DNA of 64,000 nucleotides, from positions 4,483 through 68,482 of the forward strand of contig JBKDMX010000046.1 in the NCBI GenBank assembly GCA_046343855.1. The letters run 5' to 3'. Shown piece by piece: positions 1 through 55,731 of this stretch. Below the pieces are notes generated by a model, which saw only the letters and a program-made list of their open reading frames with translations, searched no databases and was not told the origin of the DNA. The stretch is from Planctomycetia bacterium (GTDB lineage: Bacteria > Planctomycetota > Planctomycetia > Pirellulales > UBA1268). A program made the translations under genes and the position numbers. Every line of letters begins with the position of its first letter. Position 1 is the stretch's first letter.

Positions 1-46
1 ACCGAGTCCTCGAGGGCCACCGCGAGGCGACTTCTGCCGTTCCGGC
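1..46 (+). repeat. family B core, partial copy at window edge
   Basis: ACCGAGTCCTCGAGGGCCACCGCGAGGCGACTTCTGCCGTTCCGGC matches the 3' half of the other B cores. Confidence 0.75.
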
Positions 47-9276: not shown

Positions 9277-11105
9277 GCACGGAAAAAACGCTGCACACTG
9301 AGTGCGGGGTGAGCGGGGCTGCCCCTGCCGGTGAGACGGCGTTGGCGGCAAGCGAAGGCAGGATGCCGCAAGCGAAGGCGCTCTGGCTGGCGCAGTCAGC
9401 ATCGAGTGAGCGGAGGCCAGGATTGCCGAAGCGAACGTCCGGCGAGACGGCAGGGGCAGCCCCGCGCGCGGCTCCAGCCAAGGTAGTTCTTGCCTTGCTG
9501 CTGACTGTGCTGCCGGTCACGGCAAGCGCGAATGACTGGAACCAGTGGGGCGGCTCGCCGATACGCAACAACGTGTCGCCGGCGAAGAACATTCCCGCCG
9601 AGTGGGCCCCCGGCGACTTCGATGCGACCACCGGCGTCTGGAAGCCCGAGACGAGCAAGAACGTCGCCTGGGTGGCTGCGCTCGGGAGCCAGTCGTATGG
9701 CAATCCGGTCGTGGCCGGCGGCAAGGCGTATGTCGGTTCCAATAACGGCAAGGGCTGGCTGAAGCGGTATCCCCCCGAGGTCGATCTCGGCTGCCTCCTG
9801 GCCTTCGACGCCACGGACGGCTCGTTCCTCTGGCAGGATTCGAGCGAGAAGCTGCCCACGGGCCGCGTGCACGACTGGCCGCTCCAGGGCATCTGCTGCG
9901 CGCCGCTCGTGGAGGGGGACCGGCTGTGGTACGTGACCAGCCGCGGCGAAGTGAAGTGCCTGGATACCGAGGGCTTTCGCGACGGCGAGAACGACGGGCC
10001 GTTCACGACGGAGAAGGTGCAGGAGAAGGACGAGGCCGACGTGGTGTGGGTGCTCGACATGATGAAGCAGCTCGGCGTCTCGCAGCACAACATGTGCTCC
10101 TGCAGCGTGACGACCGCCGGCGACTTCCTCTTCGTGAACACGAGCAACGGCGTCGACGAGGGGCACATCAATCTTCCCAATGCCGAGGCGCCGAGCTTCC
10201 TCTGCATCGACAAGCGCGACGGCACGGTGCTCTGGGCCGACAACACGCCGGGCGCCAACGTGCTCCACGGCCAGTGGTCGAGCCCGGCCTATGCCGAGCT
10301 CGGCGGTGTGCCGCAGGTGATCTTCGGCGGCGGCGACGGCTGGGTCTACTCGTTCGACGCCCGCGGCGAGAACGGCCGCGCGAAGAAGCTCTGGGAGTTC
10401 GACTGCAATCCCAAGGAATCGAAGTACACGCTCGGCGGCCGGGCCGACCGCAACCACATCATCGGCACGCCGGTGATCCACGAAGGGCTCGTCTACATCG
10501 CCGTCGGCGAAGACCCGGAGCACGGCGAGGGCGTGGGGCATCTCTGGTGCATCGATCCCACGAAGCGGGGTGATGTCTCGAGCGAGCTGGCCGTCAGCCT
10601 CAAGGACCCAAACGCTCCCCTGCCCCGCCGCCGCGAGCAGGCCGTGATCAAAGAGCAGGGGGAAGTGGCTCGGCCGAATCCGAATTCCGCCGCCGTCTGG
10701 CACTACCCCGGCTTCGATGCCGACACAAACGGCAAGCTCGACTTCGAGGAGACGATGCACCGCACCTGCGGCACCGTGGCGATTGCCGACGGCCTGCTTT
10801 TCGTCGCCGACTTCAGCGGCCTCTTCCACTGCCTCGACCTGAAGACGGGCAAGCCGCACTGGACCCACGACATGCTCGCCGCCAGCTGGGGCTCGCCGCT
10901 CATCGTGGATGGGAAGGTCTTTATCGGCGATGAAGATGGCGACATCACGGTCTTCACACTCTCCAAGGAGCAGGAGATCCTCGCCGAGATCAACATGGGC
11001 AACAGCGTCTATTCGACCCCGATCGTCGCCGGCGATACGCTCTACATCGCCAACAAGAGCCACCTTTTCGCAATCCGCGCCGGCGCCGTTCCTGCCGGCA
11101 AGTAA
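9273..11105 (+). CDS. secreted PQQ-like beta-propeller repeat protein (start uncertain; repeat element A inside 5' end)
   Basis: ATG at 9273 overlaps the upstream stop (ATGA). The hydrophobic signal core (KVVLALLLTVLPVTASA, then NDWNQWGG) lies about 70 aa downstream because the family A repeat (9313-9465) is open in frame. Alternative ATG at 9372. Confidence 0.7.
   Translation: MSTEKTLHTECGVSGAAPAGETALAASEGRMPQAKALWLAQSASSERRPGLPKRTSGETAGAAPRAAPAKVVLALLLTVLPVTASANDWNQWGGSPIRNNVSPAKNIPAEWAPGDFDATTGVWKPETSKNVAWVAALGSQSYGNPVVAGGKAYVGSNNGKGWLKRYPPEVDLGCLLAFDATDGSFLWQDSSEKLPTGRVHDWPLQGICCAPLVEGDRLWYVTSRGEVKCLDTEGFRDGENDGPFTTEKVQEKDEADVVWVLDMMKQLGVSQHNMCSCSVTTAGDFLFVNTSNGVDEGHINLPNAEAPSFLCIDKRDGTVLWADNTPGANVLHGQWSSPAYAELGGVPQVIFGGGDGWVYSFDARGENGRAKKLWEFDCNPKESKYTLGGRADRNHIIGTPVIHEGLVYIAVGEDPEHGEGVGHLWCIDPTKRGDVSSELAVSLKDPNAPLPRRREQAVIKEQGEVARPNPNSAAVWHYPGFDADTNGKLDFEETMHRTCGTVAIADGLLFVADFSGLFHCLDLKTGKPHWTHDMLAASWGSPLIVDGKVFIGDEDGDITVFTLSKEQEILAEINMGNSVYSTPIVAGDTLYIANKSHLFAIRAGAVPAGK
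9313..9465 (+). repeat. family A inverted-terminal-repeat element, copy 1
   Basis: Termini GCGGGGCTGCCCCTGCCG / CGGCAGGGGCAGCCCCGC. Internal GGCAGGATGCCG..AAGCGA sub-repeat. Homologous to 33467-33608 and 41860-41998. Confidence 0.85.
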
Positions 11106-11115: not shown

Positions 11116-12774
11116 ATGACCATGCTCCGCACGCTCGCGCTCCTTGGCCTGCTCGTCCTGCCCCTCGCGGCCCAGGCCGACACCCCGGCCGCCAACCCGG
11201 TCGACATGATCCGTCACGCCAAGCGGATCGTCTGCCTCGGCGATTCGATCACGCACGCCGGCGGCTGGGTGGCGCCGTTTGCGGCCTGGCTCGAGCGCGA
11301 GGGCATCGGGACCGAGTTGATCAACATGGGCCTGCCCAGCGAGACCGTCTCGGGCCTCTCCGAAGCCGGGCACGCCGACGGAAAATTCCCGCGGCCCGAT
11401 CTGGCCGAGCGGCTCGACCGCGTGCTGCGGGTGAGCCGCCCCGACCTCGTGATCGCCTGCTACGGGATGAATTGCGGCATCTATCAGCCGCTCGATGAGG
11501 CCCGGTTCACGAAGTTCAAGGAGGGAATCCAGCGGCTGCACGATGCGGTCGAGAAGACGGGCGCGAAGATCATCCACCTCACGCCGCCCCTCTACGACAA
11601 GCGGCCCGACAAGCCCGGCCCGGCCGGCGCGGCCGACTACGACGCCGTCCTCGACACCTATTCGAAGTGGCTGCTCTCGAAGCGGGCCGATGGCTGGGTC
11701 GTGCTCGACATCCACGGGCCGATGAAGGATTTGCTCGCCGCTGCGCGGGCCAAGGATCCGCAGGCGGTTTTTGCGCCCGACGCCGTGCATTCCAACGACG
11801 CCGGCGCGTGGGCCTTCGCCCGTTCGCTGTTCAAGGGGCTTGGCGACCACAAAGCGGCTGCCGCCGAGACGCCCGAGGCGTTTGCCGCATTCGTTCCGGA
11901 TGTGAAGCGGCGGATGGAAGTCCTGCGTGATGCGTACCTGGCGGCGGCCGGGCACCAGCGGCCCGGCATGGCCCCGGGGCTGCCGCTCGGCGAGGCCGAG
12001 GCGCAGGCTCGCGGGCTCACCGAATCGATCCGCTCGCGCCGGCTGCATCTCATGGGCGGCCAGAAGGGCTCGATCGAGTGGAAGAACCCGATCGAGTGGC
12101 CGAAGCCCCGCGTGGTCGATCCGGGGCCGGAGCCGTCGGGGCCCGCCCCCGTTCCCTCCGATGCGATCGTGCTCTTCGACGGCAAGAACCTCGACCAATG
12201 GACCAATGGCGGAAACTGGAAGGTGGCCGGCGGCATCGCCACGGTCGGCAAGGGAAAGATCGAGACGAAGCAGGGCTTCGGCGACTGCCAGCTGCACGTC
12301 GAGTTTCGCACCGCCGCCGACACGAGCGGCGAGGGGCAGCAGCGAAGCAACTCGGGCGTCTTCCTCATGGGGAAATACGAGATTCAGATCCTCGACTCGT
12401 TCCAGGACGGCACCGACAGCCCCATCACCTATTTCGACGGCCAGTGCGGTGCCCTCTACAAGCAGCAGCCGCCGGCCGTGAACGCCTGCCGCAGGCCCGG
12501 GGAGTGGCAGACCTACGACATCCTCTTCACCCGGCCACGCTTCCACGCCGACGGCACGCTCGCGAAGCCCGCCCGGATCAGCGTGCTCCACAACGGCGTG
12601 GCCATCCACTCCGACACGGTGATCAAGGGCGATACGTTCTTCCACGCCCCTCCGAGCTACACGAAGCACGACGACGCCCTGCCGATCGGGCTGCAGGAGC
12701 ACGGCAACCCGGTCCAGTTCCGCAACATCTGGGTCCGCCCCTTCGAGCCCCTCGCCCCAAAGCTCATCCCGTAG
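11116..12774 (+). CDS. secreted SGNH/GDSL hydrolase fused to DUF1080 (3-keto-disaccharide hydrolase-like) domain
   Basis: ATG at 11116, signal peptide, VCLGDSITHAGG block I. C-terminal FDGKNLDQW...NSGVFL...LQEHGNPVQFRNIWVRP is typical of DUF1080. The TAG stop lies in a family D hairpin. Confidence 0.8.
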   Translation: MTMLRTLALLGLLVLPLAAQADTPAANPVDMIRHAKRIVCLGDSITHAGGWVAPFAAWLEREGIGTELINMGLPSETVSGLSEAGHADGKFPRPDLAERLDRVLRVSRPDLVIACYGMNCGIYQPLDEARFTKFKEGIQRLHDAVEKTGAKIIHLTPPLYDKRPDKPGPAGAADYDAVLDTYSKWLLSKRADGWVVLDIHGPMKDLLAAARAKDPQAVFAPDAVHSNDAGAWAFARSLFKGLGDHKAAAAETPEAFAAFVPDVKRRMEVLRDAYLAAAGHQRPGMAPGLPLGEAEAQARGLTESIRSRRLHLMGGQKGSIEWKNPIEWPKPRVVDPGPEPSGPAPVPSDAIVLFDGKNLDQWTNGGNWKVAGGIATVGKGKIETKQGFGDCQLHVEFRTAADTSGEGQQRSNSGVFLMGKYEIQILDSFQDGTDSPITYFDGQCGALYKQQPPAVNACRRPGEWQTYDILFTRPRFHADGTLAKPARISVLHNGVAIHSDTVIKGDTFFHAPPSYTKHDDALPIGLQEHGNPVQFRNIWVRPFEPLAPKLIP

Positions 12775-12794
12775 GACAGGCCTCCGTGCCTGTC
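12771..12794. repeat. family D hairpin (loop CTCCGT)
   Basis: GTAGGACAGGCCTCCGTGCCTGTC. Its TAG is the stop of CDS 11116-12774. Confidence 0.85.
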
Positions 12795-12798
12795 ATTG

Positions 12799-12820
12799 GT
12801 AGGACGGGCTTCAGCCTGTC
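12799..12820. repeat. family D hairpin (loop TTCA, one stem mismatch)
   Basis: GTAGGACGGGCTTCAGCCTGTC. Confidence 0.8.
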
Positions 12821-12827
12821 GAAAGGA

Positions 12828-12850
12828 GACCGCTTGCTCCGCAAGCGGAT
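12828..12850. repeat. family C hairpin (solo)
   Basis: GACCGCTTGCTCCGCAAGCGGAT. Stem CCGCTTG/CAAGCGG. Confidence 0.8.
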
Positions 12851-12875
12851 AGACAGGCACGGAGGCCTGTCCTAC
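12851..12875. repeat. family D hairpin (loop ACGGAG)
   Basis: AGACAGGCACGGAGGCCTGTCCTAC. Its CTA (TAG on the minus strand) is the stop of CDS 12872-13114. Confidence 0.85.
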
Positions 12876-15105: not shown

Positions 15106-15375
15106 GATCGTGGAGCGCCTGGGGCCTCGGAAGCGTTTCAAAACGAGCCGGGAGTCTAGCCGCTCGGAGGCGTGAGCCCCACAGCAGCCTTCCGCGGTCT
15201 CCAATCCCCCCTTTTGCCGAGCACCGACGGAATTTCGTGCCCAAGCGGCGCAAGCATCGGCCTCATCCCGACTTCCGACGAATGGCCCGCGTCCTAAGTC
15301 GAGAAAAGTCGGCCCGAATGAAGCCCCGCGCACGCCCCGGACTCCTTGTCGCCGGCGGCGCCTGTCCCATTCAAT

Positions 15376-15417
15376 CGTGGTTCACCGGAACACCCGCGTG
15401 GTTCGCCGGAACACCCG
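15376..15417 (+). promoter_or_regulatory. tandem 21-bp direct repeat upstream of CDS 15447
   Basis: CGTGGTTCACCGGAACACCCG / CGTGGTTCGCCGGAACACCCG, 20/21 identical. Ends 30 nt before the ATG. Confidence 0.5.
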
Positions 15418-15446
15418 GCGCGTTCACACCCAGGAGAACCCGCATC

Positions 15447-16373
15447 ATGCGTCAGAGCAACATTCGGTCGGTCTTGAGCGTGTCGCTCGCAGCGGGCGCG
15501 ATCGCCGCCATGCTCGTCAATGCGTTCTTCGCTCCTCCTGCCGAAGGCGCGACCCCTGCCCCGCCGTCGGTCGTCGAGGGAGAAGCGATCGCGGGCGGCG
15601 CGGTGCAGAGAATCGACGACTATGCCGCCGCCACCGAGGCGGCCCGCCAATCGCAGGCGATGCTCCTGGTCTCGGTGGAACCGGCCGGGGGCGATCCCGC
15701 CGACGCCGCCGGGCAGAGGCTCGAGCGGCCCGACGTGCAGGAGCGGTTTGCCGCGAGCGGCACGCCATGGGTCTTCTGCCGGCTGGGGCTGCACGACGCC
15801 GGAGCCGGCCTCGTCGGCGATCCTGCGCTCCGCGAGATGCGTCGCGGCCCGGGCGTCTTCGTGGTGGACCACACCCCGGGAGCCTACACCGGCCGGATCG
15901 TCTCGATCCTGCCGCGGACCGCGGGCAAGTATTACTCCTTCAGCCCGTCGCACCTCGACGAACTTGCCTCGCTGCCGCAGGGCTCGCTCACGCAGCGGTC
16001 CCTCATCCTCGCGGTGCGGATTCACCCGGAGCATCCGCAGAGCACGCAGGGCTCGTTCGACCCGACGCTCACGGAGGCGGCCACATCTCACTCCGACCAC
16101 CAGGCCCGGATCGGCCGACAGGGGCACCACGACTGGCAATCGCGTTCGCAAGCGCTCGCCGGCCGCGTCGGTGGCGGCGGCTATCCGCAGGAGGTCTGCG
16201 CGGAGAGCTGGGAGAATCAGGACCTGCTCGACTCGTGCGTCGATTGCGTCGCCAGCTGGCGGCAATCGTCGGGCCACTGGAGCGCCGTTCGCAGCCCGCA
16301 GTCGTCCTACGGCTACGACATCCGCCGCGGCCCCAACGGCATCTGGTACGCCACGGGGATCTTCGTCAGGTAG
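15447..16373 (+). CDS. secreted protein with C-terminal CAP/SCP (PR-1-like) domain, tentative
   Basis: CAGGAG RBS, ATG at 15447, signal peptide. The C-terminus (HSDHQA..GHH...AESW...WRQSSGHWSAV...WYATGIF) resembles bacterial CAP domains. The TAG stop lies in a family C repeat arm. Confidence 0.55.
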   Translation: MRQSNIRSVLSVSLAAGAIAAMLVNAFFAPPAEGATPAPPSVVEGEAIAGGAVQRIDDYAAATEAARQSQAMLLVSVEPAGGDPADAAGQRLERPDVQERFAASGTPWVFCRLGLHDAGAGLVGDPALREMRRGPGVFVVDHTPGAYTGRIVSILPRTAGKYYSFSPSHLDELASLPQGSLTQRSLILAVRIHPEHPQSTQGSFDPTLTEAATSHSDHQARIGRQGHHDWQSRSQALAGRVGGGGYPQEVCAESWENQDLLDSCVDCVASWRQSSGHWSAVRSPQSSYGYDIRRGPNGIWYATGIFVR

Positions 16374-16397
16374 ACCGCGTCGTCCCAAAGCGAATCC
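16370..16397 (+). repeat. family C arm, degenerate (left end of composite element)
   Basis: GTAGACCGCGTCGTCCCAAAGCGAATCC compared with the canonical GTAGACCGCTTGCTCCGCAAGCGGATTCC. Contains the stop codon of CDS 15447-16373. Confidence 0.6.
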
Positions 16398-16415
16398 GCT
16401 GGACGAAGGCGAGCC

Positions 16416-16491
16416 GGAATCGGCGGAAGCGTGACGAGCATTTGGACCGAGTCCGCGAGGGCCACCGCGAGGCACCTTCTGCCGTTCCGGC
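16416..16491 (+). repeat. family B core (inside composite C-B-C element 16370-16540)
   Basis: GGAATCGGCGGAAGCGTGACGAGCATTTGGACCGAGTCCGCGAGGGCCACCGCGAGGCACCTTCTGCCGTTCCGGC. Confidence 0.85.
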
Positions 16492-16513
16492 GAGCCGGTG
16501 CGACACCAATCAA

Positions 16514-16540
16514 GATCCGCTTGCGGAACAAGCGGTCTAC
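16514..16540 (-). repeat. family C arm (right end of composite element)
   Basis: GATCCGCTTGCGGAACAAGCGGTCTAC. Confidence 0.8.
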
Positions 16541-16551
16541 TTTGTGGTGAT

Positions 16552-16854
16552 CTACACGGGCCCCGCGGCCGGCAGGATGAAGATCTTGCCGTCGCCCATG
16601 CGGCCGGTGCGGGCCGCCTCCACGATGCGATCGACCACCTCGTCGACGCGGGCGTCGTCCACCCAGAGCTGGATCTCCACCTTCGGCAGAAAGGCGAGCG
16701 AATACTCGCTGTCGCCGTATTGATCGAGGTAGCTCTTCTGCCGCCCGTAGCCCTTCACCTCGCGAACGGAGCAGGCCTCGAGCGGCGCGAACTTCAGCGC
16801 CTCGAGCACCCGCTCGGCCACGAAGGGCTTCACGATGGCAATGACTTCCTTCAA
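16552..16854 (-). CDS. P-II (GlnB-like) signal-transduction family protein, short form (100 aa)
   Basis: TTG start at 16854 overlapping the ferredoxin stop (TTGA). KEVIAIVKPF, T-loop GYGRQKSYLDQYGDSEY, FLPKVEIQLWV, TGRMGDGKIFI align with GlnB. The C-terminus is shorter than canonical. Confidence 0.75.
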   Translation of the reverse strand: MKEVIAIVKPFVAERVLEALKFAPLEACSVREVKGYGRQKSYLDQYGDSEYSLAFLPKVEIQLWVDDARVDEVVDRIVEAARTGRMGDGKIFILPAAGPV

Positions 16855-17543: not shown

Positions 17544-17556
17544 CCGGACCCTAGCG

Positions 17557-17683
17557 CCATTCTGGAATACGTGTAGCGACGACTCGGCACACCACGGACG
17601 GAGGCGAAGGGATCGGCTGAAGCTCGACGAGCATTTGGCCGCCGCGGCCACCGCGAGTCGACTTCTGCCGTCCCGAAGCCGGC
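17557..17683 (+). repeat. family B long variant, copy 1
   Basis: Differs from 32800-32925 by 3 substitutions and 1 indel by my alignment. The last ~95 nt are identical. Confidence 0.9.
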
Positions 17684-17831
17684 GATACACGTACGTCCGA
17701 TGCGCTCGAGCACCCCGGACTCGAGCGCCCCGGCCCCGCGCGAGGGGCGTCGGCCGCGACGGTCAGGCGAGACCCTTGTATCCGGCTCCGGCCTGCCTCA
17801 TTCTGTGTGGCCTCCCCTCGGGAACCACGCG

Positions 17832-18761: not shown

Positions 18762-19154
18762 ATGGAACCCGTCGTCGCCGAACTGATCAAGCTCAATCAG
18801 CAGTTGCTCACCGCCATCGCGTCGGGCGACTGGGATGCCTACCGCAGCCTGGTGGCCTCCGACATCACCTGCTTCGAGCCGGAGGCCCGCGGGCATCTCG
18901 TGGAAGGGCTCGCCTTTCACGAGTTTTATTTCAAGCTGTCGGGGGGCACGTCGCAGCCCGCCAAGCATCTCACGACGACGATGGTCGCGCCGAAGGTGCG
19001 GCTGCTGTCCGACACCGCCGCGGTGATCTCGTACGTGCGGCTCGTGCAGAAGCTCGACGACGCCGGCAAGCCGGTGACGGTCAGCTCCGAGGAGACTCGC
19101 GTCTGGCAAAAGCTCGGCGGCCGCTGGCAGCACGTCCACTTCCACCGCTCGTAG
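18762..19154 (+). CDS. CaMKII association-domain-like (NTF2 fold) protein
   Basis: FEPEARGHLVEGLAFHEFYF and the C-terminal EETRVWQKLGGRWQHVHFHRS closely mirror the CaMKII_AD family. The TAG stop lies in a family D hairpin. Confidence 0.75.
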   Translation: MEPVVAELIKLNQQLLTAIASGDWDAYRSLVASDITCFEPEARGHLVEGLAFHEFYFKLSGGTSQPAKHLTTTMVAPKVRLLSDTAAVISYVRLVQKLDDAGKPVTVSSEETRVWQKLGGRWQHVHFHRS

Positions 19155-19174
19155 GACAGGCGTCTCTGCCTGTC
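19151..19174. repeat. family D hairpin (variant loop)
   Basis: GTAGGACAGGCGTCTCTGCCTGTC. Its TAG is the stop of CDS 18762-19154. Confidence 0.8.
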
Positions 19175-19175
19175 T

Positions 19176-19201
19176 GTGACAGGCGCGGAGGCCTGTCGTA
19201 C
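19176..19201. repeat. family D hairpin (loop GCGGAG)
   Basis: GTGACAGGCGCGGAGGCCTGTCGTAC. Confidence 0.8.
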
Positions 19202-19223
19202 GAAAGGGCGGAGCCCGTCAAGC

Positions 19224-19249
19224 AAAAACGGACAGGATGTCCGTGTTTT
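19224..19249. terminator. bidirectional intrinsic terminator-like hairpin between convergent genes
   Basis: AAAAACGGAC-AGGAT-GTCCGTGTTTT. A-run and T-run flank a 6-bp stem. Confidence 0.45.
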
Positions 19250-19260
19250 GCGTGTAGACA

Positions 19261-19282
19261 GACAGGCTGAAGCCTATCCTAC
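19261..19282. repeat. family D hairpin (loop TGAA)
   Basis: GACAGGCTGAAGCCTATCCTAC. It supplies the moeA TAG stop on the minus strand. Confidence 0.8.
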
Positions 19283-20520
19283 CGGATCACGATCTCGACC
19301 TCGTCGCCGGCTTCGAAGCGCGTGCCGCCGGCGGGCAGGGCGATCATCCCGCCGGCGCCGGCGAGGCCGAGCAGGTCGGAGGAGCCGGTCCAGACGAGCG
19401 GCGTGGCATCGATCCCGTGCGACGTGTGCGCGAGCGTGCAGGGCAGGTAGACCGGCCTGTCGGGGGCGGCCTTCGCCGGCGCCGTGAGCCGCGCCCGACC
19501 GCGCGGAAGATGCCAGTGCTCGCGGGCCGCGCCGGCGAGGATCTGGATCGCCGGCCGCGTGAAGAGTTCGAAGCAGACGAGGCTGCTCGCCGGATTGCCC
19601 GGCAGGCCAAAGACGAGCGTGGGGGCCGCCTGCTCACGGGGCAGCGCGCCGAAGAAGACCGGCTTGCCCGGCTTGAGCCGCACCTTGTGGAAGATCTTCT
19701 CGACACCGCAGAGCCGGAAGATCTCCGGCACGAGGTCGAGATCGCCGGCCGACACGCCGCCGGAGAGCACGAGCACGTCGGCCGCGAGCCCCTGCGCCAC
19801 CGCCGCGCGGATCGCCTCCGGCCGGTCGGGGGCGATGCCCAGCGGGATCGGCTCGCCGCCGAGCAGCTTCACGGCGGCGAAGAGCATCGGGCCATTGCTG
19901 TTGCGCGTTTGGCCGAAGGCGGGCACCTCGTCGGTCGGCACGAGCTCGCTGCCGGTCGAGAGGATCGCCACGCGCACCTGCGTCGCGGCGACGACGTGTG
20001 TCGCACCCGCCTCGGCGGCCAGGCCGGTCTCGGCGGCCCCGAGCGTCATCCCGGCGGCGAGCACCTGCTGCCCGCGGCGAAACGCCGCCCCCTGCCGGGC
20101 GATGTGCTGGCCGGGGCGGAACTTCTCGTCGCGGAGCCGCACCTTTGCCCCGGCATGCACGCCGCGGCTATCGTCGACGGCGCACTCGACGGGAATGACG
20201 GCGTCGGCCCCCGCAGGCATCGGCGCCCCGGTCATGATCCGCGCGCACGCGCCGGGCTTGATCTGGAGCGTGGTGACGTCGCCGGCCGCGAGATCCACGA
20301 CGACGTCCAGCTCCAGCACGCCATCGCGGGCGGCGATCGCGTCGTCGCTCAAGAGCGCGAAGCCGTCCATCATCGCCCGGTCCCACGGAGGCGAATCGAC
20401 GTCGGAGACGACGCGCGTTGCGAGCCTGCGGCCGTAGGCGTCGAGCAATCGCGTCCGCCGCGGCGGCAGCGGGGCGGCGGTCTTCTCGATGAGGGCGATG
20501 GCTTCGGCGAGGTCGATCAT
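19279..20520 (-). CDS. moeA: molybdopterin molybdenumtransferase
   Basis: 413 aa. SPPWDRAMMDGFAL, LSTGSEL and GLPGNPAS motifs. The TAG stop lies in a family D hairpin. Confidence 0.9.
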   Translation of the reverse strand: MIDLAEAIALIEKTAAPLPPRRTRLLDAYGRRLATRVVSDVDSPPWDRAMMDGFALLSDDAIAARDGVLELDVVVDLAAGDVTTLQIKPGACARIMTGAPMPAGADAVIPVECAVDDSRGVHAGAKVRLRDEKFRPGQHIARQGAAFRRGQQVLAAGMTLGAAETGLAAEAGATHVVAATQVRVAILSTGSELVPTDEVPAFGQTRNSNGPMLFAAVKLLGGEPIPLGIAPDRPEAIRAAVAQGLAADVLVLSGGVSAGDLDLVPEIFRLCGVEKIFHKVRLKPGKPVFFGALPREQAAPTLVFGLPGNPASSLVCFELFTRPAIQILAGAAREHWHLPRGRARLTAPAKAAPDRPVYLPCTLAHTSHGIDATPLVWTGSSDLLGLAGAGGMIALPAGGTRFEAGDEVEIVIR

Positions 20521-20543: not shown

Positions 20544-20565
20544 GACAGGCTGAAGCCTGTCCTAC
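20544..20565. repeat. family D hairpin (loop TGAA)
   Basis: GACAGGCTGAAGCCTGTCCTAC. It supplies the trpG-like gene TAG stop on the minus strand. Confidence 0.85.
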
Positions 20566-21143: not shown

Positions 21144-21167
21144 GTATTTCGTTTGACGAGGGAGGCT

Positions 21168-21314
21168 GGAATCGGCGGAAGCTCGACGAGCATTTGGACC
21201 GAGTCCGCGAGGGCCACCGCGAGGAGACTTCTGCCGTTCCAGCCGACCGGACCGGCAAAAGGTTCCTCGCGGAAGCCGCGGCGGCCTAACGCTCGTCATG
21301 CTTCCGCCGATTCC
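21168..21314 (+). repeat. family B element with 24-bp terminal inverted repeats (most complete form)
   Basis: GGAATCGGCGGAAGCTCGACGAGC (21168-21191) against the reverse complement of 21291-21314, 22/24 identical. B core in the left half. Confidence 0.85.
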
Positions 21315-21330
21315 GGCCTTTGGTTTTCCG

Positions 21331-24113: not shown

Positions 24114-24590
24114 ACGCTGCGGGCGCACGCAAGCGCATCGCAAACCCCGGAGGTGAGCGCAGCCCGAACCCGGACCATTCACACCATCGGCGGCGCGATG
24201 CTTGCAGGAGCGTTGCTCGAAGACCTGTCGACCGGCCGCACCGGACTATTCCGGCGCCACCGTGCCTGCCTCCCCGCCCTCGCAGCTTGGCATGCTCTTG
24301 AAAACTGGTAGGTCTTCTGACTCCCAGACTCAGCCGGCTGCATGCCTTCTCGCGAGCAACGAGGCTTTCGCCGCGCCATCGCAATGGCCAGACCACAGCC
24401 AGCCTCGTCGCCTGGATACAGCGGCGGGGCCGTCCCGGAATCACACCGGAGTTCCCTGTTTGCCCATCGAAAGCAGATGCGATCGCTAGGCCACCAGAAT
24501 CGTGAAGGGCAATCTATCGGGGGGTGGGAGCCTGTCAAGCGGCGCCGGTTTCACTCGCCTGACCGGCAGACTTTCACACGCGTCTCGAGC

Positions 24591-24966: not shown

Positions 24967-25788
24967 ATGAAGCGTATGATGTTCCTCGGTGCGCTGGTTC
25001 TCGGTGTCACCGTTTGTAGCCAGTCTTTTGGTTTCGAGCTCCTTGACCGGATGCTCGGCCACAAGGGCTGCACCTCGTGCTGTGAGCCCGGCTGCGACGC
25101 CGGCAATGGATGCTGTGAGCCTGGCTGCGGTGCCGGCAACGGCTGTGCGGAACCGGCCTGCGGTGCTGGTAATGGGTGTGCGGAGCCCGCTTGCGACGCC
25201 GGTGCCGGCTGCTGCGAGCCGAGCTGCGGTGCGGCGTCTTGCTGCGGTGTTCGGAAGAAGCATGACCTCTTCGGCGGGCTGAAGGGCCTGTTCGAAAAGT
25301 GCAAGCGGAAGCACCACGGCTGCACCGACAGCTGCTGCGGTGAGCCCGATTGCGGTGCTGGCAACGGTTGCGCCGAGCCCGCTTGCGGTGCTGGCAACGG
25401 CTGTGCGGAACCGGCGTGCGACGCTGGTGCCGGCTGCTGCGAGCCCAGCTGCGGTGCGGCTTCTTGCTGCGGGACCCGTGCTCGGAAGTGCCGTGGCACC
25501 CCGATCCTTGACCTGCTCAAGGCGATCCACGAAGCGAAGAAGGATTGCCTGAGCCGTCGTCGTGCCAGCTGCTGCGATAGCTGCTGCAACGACCCGGATT
25601 GTGGTGCTGGCAACGGCTGCTGCGAGCCCGCCTGTGGCGCTGCCGGCAACGGCTGCTGCGAGCCGGCTTGCGGTGCGGCCTCGACTCCGGTCGAAGCGAC
25701 CCCGGCCGCCCCGACCCCCGATGCCTCGGCTTCGGCCAAGGTCCCGGGCAAGGTCGTGGCGGTGAGCCGCACGGTTGCTGCCAAGTAA
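24967..25788 (+). CDS. secreted Cys-rich repeat protein (EP-x-C-G-A-G-N-G-C repeats), family not recognised
   Basis: AAGGAG at 24951-24956, ATG at 24967, signal peptide, about 44 Cys in 273 aa. Own terminator at 25843-25881. Confidence 0.7.
   Translation: MKRMMFLGALVLGVTVCSQSFGFELLDRMLGHKGCTSCCEPGCDAGNGCCEPGCGAGNGCAEPACGAGNGCAEPACDAGAGCCEPSCGAASCCGVRKKHDLFGGLKGLFEKCKRKHHGCTDSCCGEPDCGAGNGCAEPACGAGNGCAEPACDAGAGCCEPSCGAASCCGTRARKCRGTPILDLLKAIHEAKKDCLSRRRASCCDSCCNDPDCGAGNGCCEPACGAAGNGCCEPACGAASTPVEATPAAPTPDASASAKVPGKVVAVSRTVAAK
25114..25490 (+). repeat. intragenic duplication of a ~45-aa Cys-rich block (period ~226 nt) made of ~36-nt sub-repeats
   Basis: CEPGCGAGNGCAEPACGAGNGCAEPACDAGAGCCEPSCGAASCCG recurs as GEPDCGAGNGCAEPACGAGNGCAEPACDAGAGCCEPSCGAASCCG. 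Confidence 0.85.
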
Positions 25789-25882: not shown

Positions 25883-25968
25883 GAAAAAGGTGTCAGGACT
25901 CTTTTCCGGCCAAAAAAGTGCCGGATCCCGAAAAAGTGACTTCGGAAAAGAGTCCTGACACCTTTTTC
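25883..25968. repeat. family E long hairpin (26-bp perfect arms, 34-nt loop)
   Basis: GAAAAAGGTGTCAGGACTCTTTTCCG ... CGGAAAAGAGTCCTGACACCTTTTTC. Confidence 0.9.
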
Positions 25969-31996: not shown

Positions 31997-32797
31997 ATGC
32001 TCGAACGTCGTCCCGTCTTCCCCGGTGTGATCGAGATGAATCACCAGGCGGGATACCGCATCGGCTGCAACGTGTATTTGGTCTATGAAGGCCGCGACTG
32101 GGCGCTCGTCGACGTCGGCTACGAGGAGACGGTGGATGAGATCATCGAGCTCGTCCGCCAAATGGATTTTCCGCTTTCGCAGTGCCGGGCGCTGGTTGCC
32201 ACCCACGCCGACGTGGACCACATCCAGGGCCTCGCCAAGGCGAAGACCATTCTCAAGGCGCCGGTGCTCGCCCACCCGAAGGCAGTGGCCTCGCTCGAGT
32301 CGGGCGACACGATCAAGACGTTCGCCGAGATCGCCGCACAAAACGTCCATATGCCGATGCCGCCGGTGAAGATCGACCGCGAGATCGCCGACGGCGATAC
32401 GATCGAGATCGGCGCGAGCAGGCTCGAGGTCTGGCACACGCCCGGCCACACCGACAGCCAGCTCGCCTTTCGCCTGGGCAACCTGCTGCTCTCCGGCGAC
32501 AACATCTACCGCGACGGCTCGGTCGGCGCAATCGACGCGCATCACGGCAGCGACATTCCCTCCTTCATCAGGTCGCTCCAGCGGATCGCGAAGAGCGACG
32601 TCGAGTGGCTGCTGCCGAGCCACGGGCCGATCTTCCGCAAGGACGAGAAGCTGCTCGCGAAGACGATCGGCCGGCTGGAGGGCTATCTCACGCTCGCCGA
32701 CTTCGGCACCTGCGCGCCGCACTGGCCGCTGATCGACGAGTGGGATCGCGAACTCGCCGAAGGCCGCTTCCCCAACGCGAAGCCGCAGCCCGCCTAG
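31997..32797 (+). CDS. MBL-fold metallo-hydrolase
   Basis: ATG at 31997 inside ORF 30104..32797. [28 protein letters not shown]. Confidence 0.85.
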
Positions 32798-32799
32798 AG

Positions 32800-32925
32800 C
32801 CGTTCTGGAATACGTGGAGCGACGCTCGGCAAACCACGGACGGAGGCGAAGGGATCGGCTGAAGCTCGACGAGCATTTGGCCGCCGCGGCCACCGCGAGT
32901 CGACTTCTGCCGTCCCGAAGCCGGC
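32800..32925 (+). repeat. family B long variant, copy 2
   Basis: Near-identical to 17557-17683. Starts 2 nt after the MBL gene stop. Confidence 0.9.
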
Positions 32926-33031
32926 TAGGCCGATTCCTGGCCTGGAAAACCCTGAGGGTTTTTCCGTAAAGACCGGTCCTGCGGGCGGCCGATATCTTCC
33001 CTGACGCTGTTTTTTCAGGGGGGACAATCCG

Positions 33032-33466: not shown

Positions 33467-33608
33467 GGCGAAGGGCTGCCCGTGCCGTCGAGCCGGCGTT
33501 GGCGGCAAGCGAAGGCAGGATGCCGAAAGCGCAGCCGCCATCGAGTGAACGGAGCCCAGGATGGGCGCAGTGAACGTCCGAGCGAGGCGGCATGGGCAGC
33601 CCCTCGCC
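33467..33608 (+). repeat. family A element, copy 2
   Basis: Termini GGCGAAGGGCTGCCCGTGCCG / CGGCATGGGCAGCCCCTCGCC. Shares CGGCGTTGGCGGCAAGCGAAGGCAGGATGCCG with copy 1. Confidence 0.85.
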
Positions 33609-35535: not shown

Positions 35536-35569
35536 CTCGTGCATCGAGGGTGGCGCGCCGGCTCGCGGG

Positions 35570-35633
35570 CGGCAGAAGGCTCCTCGCGTTGCCCCACGCG
35601 GACTCGGTTCAAAAGCTCGTCACGCTTCTGCCG
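35570..35633 (-). repeat. family B core, inverted orientation, diverged
   Basis: Reverse complement reads CGGCAGAAGCGTGACGAGCTTTTGAACCGAGTCCGCGTGGGGCAACGCGAGGAGCCTTCTGCCG. Confidence 0.75.
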
Positions 35634-35708
35634 ACCCGCGAGCCTACGTCATCCCTGTCGAAGAGCCGAGGCGCTGAGCAATTGAGCCGGCTTTTTTCCA
35701 CAGCGCGT

Positions 35709-38739: not shown

Positions 38740-38821
38740 AAAAGGTGTCAGGACTCTTTTCCCGACGCCGTTCTGTGGAAAACGGGACCGTTTGGACCGG
38801 AAAAGAGTCCTGACACCTTTT
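38740..38821. repeat. family E long hairpin (23-bp perfect arms, 36-nt loop)
   Basis: AAAAGGTGTCAGGACTCTTTTCC ... GGAAAAGAGTCCTGACACCTTTT. The arms are shared with 25883-25968 and the loops are unrelated. Confidence 0.9.
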
Positions 38822-38883
38822 TAAATGGCCCGCCTCGTCGGCCGCGGCCCCGGGCTGTATAACTCTTACGGTTATGACGGCTG

Positions 38884-41859: not shown

Positions 41860-41998
41860 GGACGGGGCTGCCCGTATCGTCGAGCCGGCGTTGCCGTCCA
41901 GCGCAGGCAGGATGCCGGAGCGCAGACGGCATCGAGCGAGCGAAGGGCAGGATGCCCGAAGCGAGCGTCCGAGCGAGGCGGTACGGGCAGCCCCGTCC
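41860..41998 (+). repeat. family A element, copy 3 (nuoD-nuoE spacer)
   Basis: 20-bp termini GGACGGGGCTGCCCGTATCG / CGGTACGGGCAGCCCCGTCC (1 mismatch). Same internal modules. Confidence 0.85.
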
Positions 41999-48665: not shown

Positions 48666-48689
48666 CCCGTCTTCCACTCTCTCCGAACC

Positions 48690-50915
48690 ATGCCGCCACT
48701 CTCCCCCGCCACGCTCCTCGTTCTCGTGCCGCTCTTGCCGCTCGTGGGCGCGATCCTCACGATCCTGCTCGGTCGGGTGCTCGGCTCACGGGCGCACCTG
48801 CCGGCCATCGCGGGCATCGCGGCCGCGGCCGGCGCCGCCGTGATGCTGCTGTTGGCGACGGCCAACCAGGTGGGCAGCCCGCACGGCTCGCATCAGGAGC
48901 CGATCCGTCCGGTCGAGATGATCTCGACGCTCTGGCAGTGGGCGACGGTGGACGAGGCCTACACCCCCGCTGCCGACAGCGCCGCGGCCATCCCCGGCAC
49001 CGCGGTGAGTCGCCAGCCCTCCGATGCGCGTTCCTTCTCGATCCCGGTGGCGCTGCGGCTCGATCCACTCACCGCCACGATGCTCACGATCATCACCTGC
49101 GTGGGCCTGCTCGTGGCGATCTATTCCGTGGGCTACATGCACGACGATCCCGGTTACCCGCGGTTCTTCGCGCTCGTGTCGATGTTCGTCTTCTCGATGG
49201 CGATGCTCGTGGCGGCGAGCAATTTCCTGATCGTCTATGTCTTCTGGGAGGCGGTGGGCGCCTGCAGCTACCTGCTGATCGGCTTCTGGTTTCGGAAGCC
49301 CGAGGCGGCCCGGGCGGCGAAGAAGGCGTTTCTCGTCAACCGCGTCGGCGACTTCGGGCTGGCCATCGCCACGTTCCTGCTCTGGATGACCTACGGCACG
49401 CTTGACTTCCACGACACGCTCTCCCCCGACGGCACGATTCTTCCCGGCATCCTCGGGCAGACCCGCCTCGCCGACGCAGCCGGCATCGTGGGCGGCGTGG
49501 TGGGCACCGCGATCTGCCTGCTCTTGCTTTTGGCCGCCTGCGGCAAGAGCGCTCAGCTGCCGCTGCACGTCTGGCTGCCCGACGCGATGGAAGGCCCCAC
49601 GCCGGCCAGCGCCCTGATCCACGCCGCCACGATGGTCACGGCGGGCATCTATTTGATCACCCGCTGTGCGCCGCTCTTTGTGGCCTGCCCCGGCGCCCTG
49701 TCGGCCGTGTCGATCGTCGGTGGCACGACGGCCCTCGTCGCGGCGCTCATCGCCACGGTGCAGAACGACCTCAAGCGGGTGCTCGCCTATTCCACGATCA
49801 GTCAGCTCGGCTACATGTTTGCGAGCCTCGGCACCGGCACGATGCTCGGCTTCACGGCGGCGATCTTCCACCTCGTGACCCACGCCTTCTTCAAGGCGCT
49901 CCTCTTCATGGGTGCAGGCTCCGTGATGCACGCGATGGGGGGCGTGATCGACATGCGGCGGTTCGGCGGCCTGCGACGCGTCATGCCGATCACCGCGGCC
50001 ACGTTCTTGATCGGTTCGCTCGCGCTCGCCGGCGTCGCACCGTTTGCAGGCTTCTTCAGCAAGGATGAAATCCTCGCCACGCTCCACTCCCGCGGCTGGC
50101 CCGACGCCCATTCCGAACACCACGACGCGGCGGCGAGCCCCGCCGTGGCCGCCGCCGTACGACAGGCCTCCGTGCCTGTCTTATTTGCCGCGCATTCACA
50201 AACCGCGTCGCAGCCCCTTTCCACCCTCGACACGCCCGCAACGTTTCGCACGCTCTTCTGGATGGCGCTCGTCACCGCGGGGCTCACGGCCTTCTACACG
50301 TTTCGCGCCGTCTTCATGACGTTCACCGGCCCCACGCGGGTGCCGGAGGAGGCGGGGCACCATGCCCACGAATCCCCGCCGGTGATGACGCTCCCGCTGG
50401 TGATCCTCGCCGTGCCGTCGGCCCTCGCCGGCTGGTGGCTCTTCAGCACCAACTGGCTGGCCCACTTCCTCTCCGCGACGCCCTCGCTCACCGCTCCTTC
50501 CGTGGCGAAGACGGCGGCTCCACACGTCTTCCACATGGATCTCGCGATCCAGGGCTCGCTGGCCGCGGCGATCGGGATCGTGATCGCCGCGATCGGCCAC
50601 CTCGGTCGCCGCAGCGACGCCCCGCAGATGGAGCGTTTCCTCGGGCCGCTCCAGACGGTCTTCGCCAACAAGTTCTACTTCGACCAGCTCTATTCCGCGC
50701 TCGTCGTGCGGCCGCTCGAGGCGCTGGCGATGGTCGCGGCGCTCATCGACCGCTACGTGATCGACGGCCTCGTCAATGGCGTCGCCACGATCCCCGTCGT
50801 GCTCGGCGGCATCGTCCGCCGCCTGCAGTCGGGGCTCGTGCAGCGATATGCTCTGGCCGGCGTCATGGGTGTGCTCATGATCGTCCTCGCCCTCGCCTGG
50901 CAGCTCCGCGGCTGA
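48690..50915 (+). CDS. nuoL: NADH-quinone oxidoreductase subunit L (741 aa, with loop insertion carrying a family D hairpin)
   Basis: WEAVGACSYLLIGFW, KSAQLPLHVWLPDAMEGPTP, GFFSKDEIL. Confidence 0.93.
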   Translation: MPPLSPATLLVLVPLLPLVGAILTILLGRVLGSRAHLPAIAGIAAAAGAAVMLLLATANQVGSPHGSHQEPIRPVEMISTLWQWATVDEAYTPAADSAAAIPGTAVSRQPSDARSFSIPVALRLDPLTATMLTIITCVGLLVAIYSVGYMHDDPGYPRFFALVSMFVFSMAMLVAASNFLIVYVFWEAVGACSYLLIGFWFRKPEAARAAKKAFLVNRVGDFGLAIATFLLWMTYGTLDFHDTLSPDGTILPGILGQTRLADAAGIVGGVVGTAICLLLLLAACGKSAQLPLHVWLPDAMEGPTPASALIHAATMVTAGIYLITRCAPLFVACPGALSAVSIVGGTTALVAALIATVQNDLKRVLAYSTISQLGYMFASLGTGTMLGFTAAIFHLVTHAFFKALLFMGAGSVMHAMGGVIDMRRFGGLRRVMPITAATFLIGSLALAGVAPFAGFFSKDEILATLHSRGWPDAHSEHHDAAASPAVAAAVRQASVPVLFAAHSQTASQPLSTLDTPATFRTLFWMALVTAGLTAFYTFRAVFMTFTGPTRVPEEAGHHAHESPPVMTLPLVILAVPSALAGWWLFSTNWLAHFLSATPSLTAPSVAKTAAPHVFHMDLAIQGSLAAAIGIVIAAIGHLGRRSDAPQMERFLGPLQTVFANKFYFDQLYSALVVRPLEALAMVAALIDRYVIDGLVNGVATIPVVLGGIVRRLQSGLVQRYALAGVMGVLMIVLALAWQLRG
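50157..50180. repeat. family D hairpin inside the nuoL reading frame
   Basis: GTACGACAGGCCTCCGTGCCTGTC, translated in frame as VRQASVPV. Confidence 0.8.
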
Positions 50916-55537: not shown

Positions 55538-55563
55538 CTACGAACAGCGACCGCTTGCTCAAA

Positions 55564-55589
55564 GTAGACCGCTTGCTCCGCAAGCGGAT
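55564..55589 (+). repeat. family C arm (left end of composite element; partial extra copy at 55549-55563)
   Basis: GTAGACCGCTTGCTCCGCAAGCGGAT. Confidence 0.85.
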
Positions 55590-55613
55590 TCCTACACGCG
55601 AGCGAGCACGGGT

Positions 55614-55677
55614 CGGCGGAAGCTCGCGGAGCATTTGGACCGAGTCCGCGAGGGCCACCGCGACGCGACTTCTGCCG
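55614..55677 (+). repeat. family B core (inside composite C-B-C element 55564-55731)
   Basis: CGGCGGAAGCTCGCGGAGCATTTGGACCGAGTCCGCGAGGGCCACCGCGACGCGACTTCTGCCG. Confidence 0.85.
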
Positions 55678-55704
55678 CCCGGGCGAGCGGCTGCGGCACA
55701 AAAA

Positions 55705-55731
55705 GATCCGCTTGCGGAGCAAGCGGTCTAC
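55705..55731 (-). repeat. family C arm (right end of composite element)
   Basis: GATCCGCTTGCGGAGCAAGCGGTCTAC. Contains the HEPN gene TAG stop (55728-55730). Confidence 0.85.

Follow-up and report, generated by a model that had tools for sequence, protein, structure and literature searches.

Inverted pairs of GTAG-headed repeats around a palindromic core: a probable REPIN- or BIME-like mosaic in an uncultured freshwater Pirellulales lineage

Two units of about 170 bp, found in a 64,000-nucleotide stretch of Pirellulales DNA (the whole of which is here called the window), represent an ordinary kind of bacterial repeat from an uncultured freshwater lineage. We consider it likely that each unit is a head-out dimer of GTAG-type REPs whose spacer is filled by an independently repeated palindrome, B, the whole forming a mosaic of the REPIN or BIME kind. 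The structural reading of the preliminary description, in which arms that are themselves hairpins and modules C, B and D combine in a BIME-like manner, was correct. The resemblance to BIMEs, which it had already qualified by noting unrelated sequences, is an analogy of architecture only, the host being a member of the Pirellulales.

The units at 16370–16540 (copy 1) and 55564–55731 (copy 2) had been reported as co-linear over their whole length, and an end-to-end alignment with a mean column identity of 85% agrees; BLASTN aligned 121 bp of the two at 86% (E=1e-30). In both, the B core stands between hairpin arms of 27 nt that are inverted to each other and have GTAG outermost. In copy 1 the B unit (16397–16509, plus strand; nhmmer 95 bits, with covariation) is an extended hairpin with the basal stems GCCGGAA.CGGCGGAAG and CTTCTGCCG.TTCCGGC, and the right arm, a putative C-type GTAG REP reading GTAGACCGCTTGTTCCGCAAGCGGATC on the minus strand (16514–16540), is followed by AAA at 16541–16543. 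The left arm of copy 1 (16370–16397, plus strand; GTAGACCGCGTCGTCCCAAAGCGAATCC) had been taken for a degenerate C; it is instead the decayed hairpin of another arm type, C2 (GTAGACCGCTTCGTCCCGAAGCGGATC), to whose consensus it has three mismatches, and the arm of sister strain L108 at this site, GTAGACCGCGTCGTCCCGAAGCGGATCC, has a single mismatch to C2. Copy 2 consists of a C-type arm (55564–55590, plus strand), a B unit (55590–55702, plus strand; nhmmer 87.6 bits) and an inverted C-type arm (55705–55731, minus strand), and its ends form perfect 26-bp terminal inverted repeats (55564–55589 against 55731–55706, 100%). Directly 5' of its head lies a partial arm cut at its 3' side (GACCGCTTGCTC, 55549–55560) and followed by AAA (together 55549–55563, plus strand), a feature absent from the preliminary description.

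The predicted fold of the whole unit has an energy of −88.8 kcal/mol in copy 1 (z = −5.2); in copy 2 the value is −110.5 kcal/mol (z = −10). The identical unit sequence is found in independent JGI, ENA and NCBI assemblies, which rules out an assembly artefact. Two other classes of element were considered and rejected: the spacing is not regular as in a CRISPR, and neither the R' and R'' motifs nor the cassette array of integron attC sites is present.

The C arm, CCGCTTGC-TCC-GCAAGCGG, has an 8-bp stem and a 3-nt loop, and C2 is built likewise as CCGCTTCG-TCC-CGAAGCGG. With one mismatch at most, the arm GACCGCTTGCTCCGCAAGCGGAT has four sites in the window, at 12828 (+), 16515 (−), 55567 (+) and 55706 (−), against none expected from 100 shuffles. 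The first of these had been recorded as a solo C hairpin at 12828–12850, and it is indeed present, enclosed together with a second D variant (12799–12820) in a cluster of REP-like arms at 12771–12875 whose outer members form a D-type head-out dimer (GTAGGACAGGCCTCCGTGCCTGTC at 12771–12794, inverted at 12852–12875).

Arms of these types are abundant beyond the window. Related Pirellulales genomes and lake metagenomes, about 1.7 Mb in all, yielded at least 392 arms or heads, the genome scan giving at least 138 arm matches in at least 105 blocks and the metagenome scan at least 241 further arms in at least 119 blocks; all arm and block totals are lower bounds. The MAG JBIIOM alone contributes at least 52 arm-bearing blocks of up to 8 kb each. 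Measured with a search pattern that left out the head itself, G, T and A occupy positions −3, −2 and −1 before the G of GACC in 92%, 91% and 92% of the 138 matches listed, and most of the 13 exceptions to the GTA head are chance matches in non-Pirellulales genomes. Tight head-out dimers of 56 bp number about 117 (53 and 64 in the two samples) among the matches listed, and 41 of the 53 in the first sample are C/C2 heterodimers with the centre GGATC-NNN-GATCC. Coding strand being taken from GC periodicity and not from annotation, head-out dimers lie between convergent genes in 49 cases, tandem genes in 49 and divergent genes in 10, against a background of 494 convergent to 505 divergent. The arms avoid such divergent regions, where promoters would lie, and in many cases overlap stop codons. 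Judged by such sequence-defined features, namely stem-loop, head, copy number, extragenic position and dimers, the arms fit GTAG-type REPs. Short-read contigs break 26–36 nt into the arms, as is expected of a multi-copy repeat.

The preliminary description had likened the units to a MITE, and the most conventional form of this idea would make them deletion derivatives of an insertion sequence, moved by cut and paste through a DDE transposase that binds 27-bp terminal repeats, with B as an internal remnant. The perfect 26-bp terminal inverted repeats of copy 2, the size of about 170 bp, the intergenic position and the occurrence of composite copies at several unrelated loci are all in keeping with this. 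However, no target-site duplication, for which a search had been advised, was found at the flanks of 55 dimers or composites, where the sequence instead extends the inverted repeat (AAA...TTT) or carries inverted partial arms, and "MITE" is overstated for that reason. The arms are also far commoner without B, as 56-bp dimers or singly, and B exists without arms. Searches for Y1/HUH (RAYT-type) genes in the roughly 1.7 Mb of arm-bearing DNA recovered no transposase gene or parent IS with these 27-bp ends, and an unpaired GTAG head on an arm that is a hairpin by itself is a hallmark of REPs and not of IS (PMC3733652). A classical MITE is thus a most improbable explanation; of the likeness, the terminal inverted repeats stand, while the arms behave as independent REP-like repeats.

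The B module has a distribution of its own. Its 28-mer core has four copies in the window against none expected, and nhmmer detected eight copies of B or its variant B' there. They include the 3' half of an armless unit cut by the window start (1–45, plus strand), an inverted armless pair (21148–21317) composed of B on the plus strand at 21148–21257 and a B'-like unit on the minus strand at 21247–21317, and a naked unit between convergent genes (35548–35655, minus strand) in which compensatory changes are apparent (A-U for G.U; CGCGU/ACGCG). The B' variant, whose apical part is replaced by GGCCGCCGCGGCC, occurs at 17550–17690 and 32793–32930, both on the plus strand, and the first is 96% identical over 134 bp to 32793–32925. 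B is accordingly a palindromic repeat of about 110 nt that is encountered naked, in inverted pairs, or with its 3' end joined to an inverted C arm. While arms stand mostly in tight 56-bp dimers without B, every long-spacer head-out dimer contained it: five among the window and genome loci and five in the metagenomes, ten of ten. The left junction of the C-B-C' composites is variable, and a D-type arm sometimes lies between C and B; this variability, a further point against a MITE, fits repeated assembly as well as it fits transposition of the unit.

The stems of B are kept paired by compensatory changes. Of the hairpin cells, 97.8% are paired. Double-change cells number 53, whereas shuffles give 16.8 ± 2.9 and sliding the partner gives no more than 7. 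Such covariation would also be consistent with a structured RNA selected by the host as a 3'-UTR stabiliser, bidirectional terminator or small RNA; B, alone or with its arms, would then be kept by selection on RNA structure and not be selfish DNA. This reading gains from a strand-marking G.U pair that 24 of 27 copies keep, from an apical sequence, GAGCAUUUGGACCGAGUC, conserved across species, and from the position of the element, which lies downstream of at least one gene in every case (B between convergent genes in 9, tandem in 12 and divergent in none). The arms score as terminator-like on both strands, with a hairpin and then a T-run, and the two copies in the window show fixation within their population. 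However, B is antisense (7) about as often as sense (5) in tandem contexts, which argues against a strand-specific RNA function. It is multi-copy, its several subfamilies (B', the L016 variant) having distinct apical parts, and it varies in presence between species. Rfam 15 at gathering thresholds returned only a cobalamin riboswitch elsewhere in the window; at E <= 10 the locus gave chance-level matches and no family reached its gathering score on the element, and the tRNA/tmRNA scan found none. Covariation and G.T wobbles are moreover equally expected of a single-stranded DNA hairpin recognised by a transposase, or of subfamilies derived from different master copies. We therefore regard a host-selected RNA as distinctly unlikely and retain the mosaic of head-out dimers with a B-filled spacer.

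Placement next to genes follows the preliminary description closely. Each copy is situated between two convergent genes. The TAG at 16371–16373, within the left arm of copy 1, ends the plus-strand ORF 15237–16373, and the minus-strand TAG at 55730–55728, within the right arm of copy 2, ends the HEPN ORF. The P-II gene does stop beside the right arm of copy 1 (16552–16554), at 11 nt and not 12 nt from the head at 16540. Pfam confirmed P-II, HEPN, its MNT partner and Mrp/ParA, whereas the "CAP domain" assigned to the upstream gene is backed by a sub-threshold match only (E=0.0098, 17.2 bits against a cut-off of 21.1). Repeat heads supply the stop codon of the CAP-like, HEPN and DUF1080-like genes near the units and of two more genes in the window, the GTAG at 12771 being among these heads and giving the TAG stop of the gene upstream of the REP-like cluster. 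In one such gene the last six codons, which the orthologue in a related genome retains, have been replaced by the repeat. These heads are a small but clear case of repeats reshaping the ends of genes.

The two units are not the only copies, as mobility would have been doubted had they been: at least four genomes of relatives contain arms, B cores and full C-B-C' composites at numerous loci that are unrelated to each other. Between species the unit content of orthologous sites differs. L085 has a B' unit that L077 lacks at the same site, a dimer and a B-like unit in L016 correspond to a 29-nt palindrome in L019, L059 and L086 differ at a shared site, and the L064 site orthologous to the cluster at 12771–12875 contains other units. 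The presence or absence polymorphism between strains that had been proposed as a check was not seen for the two window copies: within the window population every contig that spans the sites carries them. Most short contigs in that comparison end inside an arm, and L110 was left out of it owing to a palindromic misassembly. No clean empty site for a whole C dimer or composite was recovered among the orthologous sites compared.

Another observation is the regular occurrence of incomplete copies. A partial copy cut at its 3' side lies within 40 nt upstream of 144 of the 392 heads, most commonly 3 nt (AAA) before the next head. L059 contains the 13-nt GTAGACCGCCAAA six times in tandem, and dimers are found flanked on both sides by partial arms in inverted order. 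Under the preferred reading, the units would be DNA elements that are not autonomous and that spread in the form of single-stranded hairpins, probably through a Y1 (HUH) REP-associated tyrosine transposase (RAYT) acting in trans and recognising the GTAG head and stem. New copies may tend to land in or beside existing ones, which could lead to nested "onion" palindromes and to the 5' partial copies. The composite may have arisen when a B-C' unit joined a C dimer or when B inserted into such a dimer, and it may since have moved as a unit.

The expected gene was sought with tblastn and hmmsearch, using ten published RAYT/TIRYT sequences and a profile of 120 Planctomycete RAYTs, together with HUH...Y motif regular expressions and tblastn with E. 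coli RayT and IS608 TnpA; the E. coli RayT query agrees with PMC3733652 Additional file 5. In the two sets of DNA chosen for carrying C or C2 arms, of 845 kb and 852 kb (about 1.7 Mb together), no RAYT/TIRYT gene came to light. Inverted arms at gene-sized distances from each other enclose pyrE, a small ORF and a beta-carbonic anhydrase, none of them a transposase. Homologues of R. baltica RB11751 gave 863 matches, and Planctomycete RAYT genes on the four contigs checked belong to real REPtrons flanked by GTAG REPs of another sequence type. The REPs of this abundant RAYT family have a TCGCCAGA loop, which differs from the loops described here, and no REPs with that loop occur in the window or the genome-scan loci searched; the RB11751 homologues did not lead to a RAYT of this lineage.

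The negative search, the partial copies upstream of heads, the six tandem 13-nt repeats and the inverted partial arms on both sides of dimers could together suggest spread without a dedicated transposase, in which nested palindromes and tandem partials are built when replication switches template or slips at palindromes and when copies recombine. Dispersal to hundreds of unrelated loci is hard to explain in this way, as is the strict conservation of an unpaired GTAG head that has no role in slippage, and we hold such an origin to be very improbable. Local amplification does not preclude dispersal by a transposase. A broader proposal is that B and several abundant REP families with GTAG heads might persist in this lineage in the absence of a conventional cognate RAYT. 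Movement of the units would in that case fall to an unrecognised enzyme or to replication errors driven by hairpins, the arrays of GTAG, 5–12 nt and AAA (up to six in tandem) would be footprints of abortive copying started at the head, and B would be a separate structured element that targets the centres of REP dimers specifically. As a combined reading this is unlikely, and mobilisation of the head-out dimers by a RAYT remains what we infer.

A role at the 3' ends of transcripts is likewise conceivable. Transcripts of both convergent genes would include the element at their 3' ends, and on modelled energies of about −90 to −110 kcal/mol its hairpin could block 3' exonucleases, or it could act as a weak bidirectional terminator (hairpin and then UCUACUUU). 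By analogy, a hairpin that overlaps or abuts the stop codon may dampen the termination of translation; for REPs of E. coli that stand near stop codons, a link with tmRNA is reported.

The present finding extends the REP, REPIN and BIME genome architecture to uncultured freshwater Pirellulales and leaves the current understanding of REPs unchanged. The consensus sequences of C, C2, D and B explain assembly breaks at intergenic sites of these genomes. The lineage could also serve as a test case for the spread of REPs, since the expected transposase was not seen and the footprints of partial copies are unusually regular.

Correia elements of Neisseria and BOX elements of pneumococci are modular units of about 100–200 bp with a conserved core, transcribed into long hairpins, and the size, terminal inverted repeats, core and modular build of the units described here are alike. 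In Correia elements the target duplication is TA and the TIRs are plain sequences that form no hairpin, whereas no target duplication was found for the units here and their arms are self-hairpins with GTAG heads. BIMEs reportedly combine inverted REP variants (Y and Z) with other conserved motifs into a mosaic. Their arrangements are limited, they are extragenic at the 3' ends of genes, and their linker motifs are short, some of them binding IHF. C and C2 parallel Y and Z, and the mosaic build with few arrangements and the extragenic 3'-end location are common to both systems. However, the sequences are unrelated and belong to another phylum, and B is a self-pairing unit of 110 nt that is also free-standing.

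In the REPINs of Pseudomonas an inverted REP pair and its spacer fold into one long hairpin, the doublet is the common unit and singletons look like doublet remnants (Bertels and Rainey 2011, PMC3116915). The folding of inverted doublets and the doublet as the common unit are the same here. REPIN populations are linked to a RAYT gene, present as a single copy, that has the same REPs at its flanks (PMC3116915); here the RAYT was not found in the DNA searched, and most doublets have an almost empty spacer (about 7 nt), a minority containing B.

The closest system is that of the GTAG-tagged REPs, of which families GTAG-20 and GTAG-21 reside in Rhodopirellula baltica (Di Nocera, De Gregorio and Rocco 2013, PMC3733652). 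These are stem-loops of 20–40 bp with a stem of 6–13 bp, a loop of 2–4 nt and an unpaired terminal GTAG conserved in >90% of copies. They reach high copy numbers, form GTAG-outside dimers that are often heterodimers with conserved and structured spacers, lie mostly between convergent or co-directional genes where GTAG supplies TAG stops, and coexist as several families per genome (PMC3733652). The stem and loop sequences here differ from those of the R. baltica families, as judged from the peptides encoded (PMC3733652 Additional file 3), the spacer, of about 115 nt against a typical 20–100 bp, is a repeat family of its own, and no RAYT with flanking REPs (a REPtron) was found in the 1.7 Mb. 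TAG stops, head-out dimers, structured conserved spacers and convergent placement are already published for REPs, including those of Rhodopirellula baltica, and the short stem, the GTAG head, the copy number, the head-out heterodimers, the conserved and structured spacers, the gene context, the TAG stops and the coexisting families are all found here as well.

The two ~170-bp units in the window (copy 1, 16370–16540; copy 2, 55564–55731) are head-out dimers of repetitive extragenic palindromes (REPs) with a second module, B, as the spacer. Both start with GTAG and a hairpin and close with that arm in reverse complement, and they align end to end with a mean column identity of 85%, which bears out the co-linearity and the inverted, self-hairpin arms claimed in the preliminary description. 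Self-BLAST recovers the central 121 bp at 86% identity (E=1e-30) and, in copy 2, perfect 26-bp inverted ends (55564–55589 and 55731–55706); in copy 1 the right arm (16514–16540) is clean with one G.T in the stem, and the left arm carries several changes. The arm 23-mer and a B 28-mer each occur four times in the window and never in 100 shuffles. As RNA or single-stranded DNA the whole unit is predicted to fold into a single long hairpin, at −110.5 kcal/mol (z = −10) on the plus strand and −105.8 on the minus strand for copy 2, and at −88.8 kcal/mol for copy 1. An assembly artefact is ruled out, because JGI, ENA and NCBI assemblies, which are independent of one another, agree exactly on the unit sequence; JGI contig Ga0315903_10000364 and MAG GCA_046338045.1 match the window.

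The arms, C and its variant C2 (GTAGACCGCTTCGTCCCGAAGCGGATC), were searched for in one genome per species using the arm core without its head. At least 105 blocks were returned, nearly all from three Lake Mendota Pirellulales MAGs, and among the matches listed the three bases preceding the core were G, T and A in 91–92%. Matches without the GTA head were mostly scattered in Streptomyces, Comamonadaceae and other non-Pirellulales genomes and act as a built-in control. A second scan, of JGI metagenomes, added at least 119 blocks and at least 241 arms. The commonest form of the arm is not the 170-bp unit but a tight dimer of 56 bp whose GTAG heads face outwards around a GGATC-NNN-GATCC centre (53 such dimers in the first sample, 64 in the second, among the matches listed), the majority pairing a C arm with C2. 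The left arm of copy 1, previously called degenerate, is altered, but as a decayed C2 with three mismatches rather than a degenerate C, and the sister strain GCA_964417705.1 keeps this arm with one mismatch to C2.

Dimers lie between convergent genes in 49 cases, tandem genes in 49 and divergent genes in 10, with gene strands called by GC periodicity (checked on eight window genes), against a background in the same DNA where strand switches of the convergent kind are as frequent as divergent ones (494 vs 505). No target-site duplication is visible at the flanks of dimers or composites, which consist of an AAA...TTT inverted-repeat extension or of partial arms. Just upstream of 144 of 392 full heads is a 3'-truncated arm copy (GTAG plus 5–12 nt), usually separated from the head by AAA (modal gap 3 nt), and the lengths of these partial copies peak at 9, 13 and 16 nt. 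One such copy stands 5' of copy 2 (55549–55563), and others are found at related loci (for example L059 2573–2650, L002 and L067). Dimers often have partial arms on both sides in inverted order, giving nested palindromes.

A profile of B built from 18 copies finds eight B or variant B' units in the window. Strong copies, after removal of redundancy, number 26 in the window plus the genome-scan loci; the metagenome blocks add another 36. The module forms a hairpin of ~110 nt in which compensatory changes preserve the pairing of the basal stems: 97.8% of stem cells are paired, and double changes occupy 53 cells as compared to 16.8 ± 2.9 in shuffles and at most 7 after the 3' partner is slid by 1–3 columns. 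Of 27 copies, 24 keep one particular G.U pair. The apical part distinguishes the subfamilies (B, B' and, in locus L016, a longer variant); the conserved basal 20 bp therefore behave as inverted ends would in a small element. Among the 26 strong copies, 10 stand naked, 12 are followed directly at the 3' end by an inverted C or C2 arm and 5 are full head-out composites; in the metagenome sample, all five long-spacer dimers (176–254 nt) enclose B. Across 10 composites the right junction is constant (GAGCCGG, 15–25 nt, GATCC) and the left junction is variable, sometimes with a REP of the second GTAG-headed family, D. No B unit lies between divergent genes (0 of 21), and in tandem contexts B is sense in 5 cases and antisense in 7.

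The stop codons attributed to the units hold: TAG at 16371–16373 closes a plus-strand ORF, and the minus-strand TAG at 55730–55728 closes the HEPN gene; the stop of the P-II gene is at 16552–16554. P-II, HEPN, its nucleotidyltransferase partner, Mrp/ParA and ThyX are confirmed by Pfam; the CAP label given to the gene upstream of copy 1 is tentative, being a sub-threshold hit (E=0.0098, 17.2 bits; cut-off 21.1). GTAG heads of D-type REPs (GTAGGACAGGC...) give TAG stops to three more window genes (12771–12774, 19151–19154 and 20561–20564, the last on the minus strand), making five REP-supplied stops in 64 kb. The HEPN orthologue in MAG JBIIOK (L080 885–1000 vs window 55705–55760) is six codons longer and ends in TGA; in the window the arm has replaced the six-codon tail and supplies the stop. 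In L080 a tight C dimer without B lies 55 nt beyond this orthologue, with a tRNA gene, not Mrp, on its other side. The HEPN gene (55728–56132) belongs to a minus-strand HEPN/MNT-type toxin-antitoxin pair, whose nucleotidyltransferase (56119–56733; NTP_transf_2 E=2e-9) carries a HicB-like domain at its N terminus (Pfam HicB E=8e-9). Terminator-like scores are obtained for the arms (a hairpin and then UCUACUUU), and the unit may serve as a 3'-end hairpin on both convergent transcripts. By analogy with E. coli, a hairpin that overlaps the stop codon may influence termination.

D has the form GTAGGACAGGC-N4-6-GCCTGTC, with window copies at 12771, 12799, 12852 (minus strand), 19150–19285, 20543, 33631, 40554 and 50155. 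The C hairpin at 12828 described as solo is present but sits within a D dimer. The D-type REP at 50155–50180 has a GTAC head, is followed by AT-rich sequence and lies inside a 749-codon stop-to-stop ORF (48666–50915) of a nuo-like operon; either a REP within a gene or the loss of a TAG stop, fusing two reading frames, could explain it. The window further harbours three copies (82–89% identity) of a ~130–150-nt palindromic family with GGGGCTGCCC...GGGCAGCCCC ends (9316–9464, 33473–33603 and 41865–41994), and two copies of a ~85-nt element (25883–25968 and 38740–38822) with perfect 23–26-bp AT-rich inverted ends (AAAAAGGTGTCAGGACTCTTTTCC...) and differing interiors. A cobalamin riboswitch (24290–24513, minus strand; Rfam RF00174, 78 bits, E=1.7e-17) is found a few hundred bases from 33-nt tandem repeats (25052–25680; three blocks totalling about 10 units), apparently the coding sequence of a Cys-rich Gly/Ala repeat protein.

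No empty site was seen in the population to which the window belongs: each contig spanning either site has the element. Most short-read contigs stop 26–36 nt into an arm, as is typical of repeats. One ENA contig (L110 1019–1228) folds back after the B unit and then reads the P-II gene end in reverse complement, which looks like palindrome-induced misassembly. Comparison between species shows different content at orthologous sites. L085 has a 156-nt B' unit that L077 lacks; L019 has only a 29-nt palindrome (GTAGACCGCTTGCTCCGCAAGCGGTCTAC) at a site that in L016 is occupied by a partial arm, CAAA, a full dimer and a B-like unit; L086 has only GTAGACCG where L059 has six tandem copies of GTAGACCGCCAAA and then a dimer; and unit content downstream of the window gene ending at 12774 is different in L064. 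Clean insertions are also seen for an unrelated palindromic family of ~150 nt. A palindromic family of ~130–185 nt with ends like GGAAGCCCGACGCGCGAGCGAGG (L030 1170–1322, L097 6130–6282, L059 334–466 and 1424–1609) is cleanly present in some and absent from other related MAGs (for example 151 nt in L030 vs 2 nt in L078), and fragments of its end sequence adjoin C arms in L003, L005, L055, L064 and L097.

REPs of the GTAG type are thought to be moved by REP-associated tyrosine transposases (RAYTs). RAYT motif expressions gave no match in arm-bearing DNA, and tblastn with E. coli RayT and IS608 TnpA as queries was negative. Nor did ten RAYT/TIRYT sequences from the literature (PMC3733652, Additional file 5) or a profile made from 120 Planctomycete RAYTs, used in tblastn and hmmsearch, reveal a RAYT in 845 kb + 852 kb of arm-containing blocks; in this sample of blocks rather than whole genomes, we estimate that one or two matches would be expected if each genome had one C-flanked RAYT. 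The ~190-aa, highly conserved family of the Rhodopirellula baltica RAYT RB11751 is widespread in Planctomycetota (863 homologues, mostly ~60% identical). GTAG REPs with a common TCGCCAGA loop, in tandem or inverted, border the RAYT gene in all four homologues examined (L126 2250–2500 and 3083–3400; flanks of L127, L130 and L133). This type does not occur in the window or in the genome-scan loci searched.

The REP arms and B are both multi-copy, excluded from promoter regions, structurally constrained and different between species at orthologous sites. Their spread could take place in the form of single-stranded hairpins, by way of a Y1 transposase working in trans, and new copies would preferentially enter or adjoin existing ones. 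The preliminary structural description was accurate, and the features that looked special in it are standard for REPs; what novelty is left concerns the transposase not seen in the blocks searched and the very regular footprints of partial copies. GTAG-tagged REPs are known from eight phyla, R. baltica included (Di Nocera et al. 2013, PMC3733652). They have stems of 6–13 bp and a head kept in more than 90% of copies, form head-out dimers, commonly heterodimers, with conserved spacers of 20–100 bp that may carry stem-loops, are sited between convergent and co-directional genes, and can supply TAG stops from their heads; in Pseudomonas they are joined to unrelated stem-loops (PMC3733652). RAYT linkage aside, the window arms show every sequence-defined feature of this class that was tested. 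The resemblance to a classical MITE proposed earlier fails on the target-site duplication, which the units lack, while the likeness to E. coli BIMEs stands as it was drawn, as a parallel in modular architecture between unrelated sequences.
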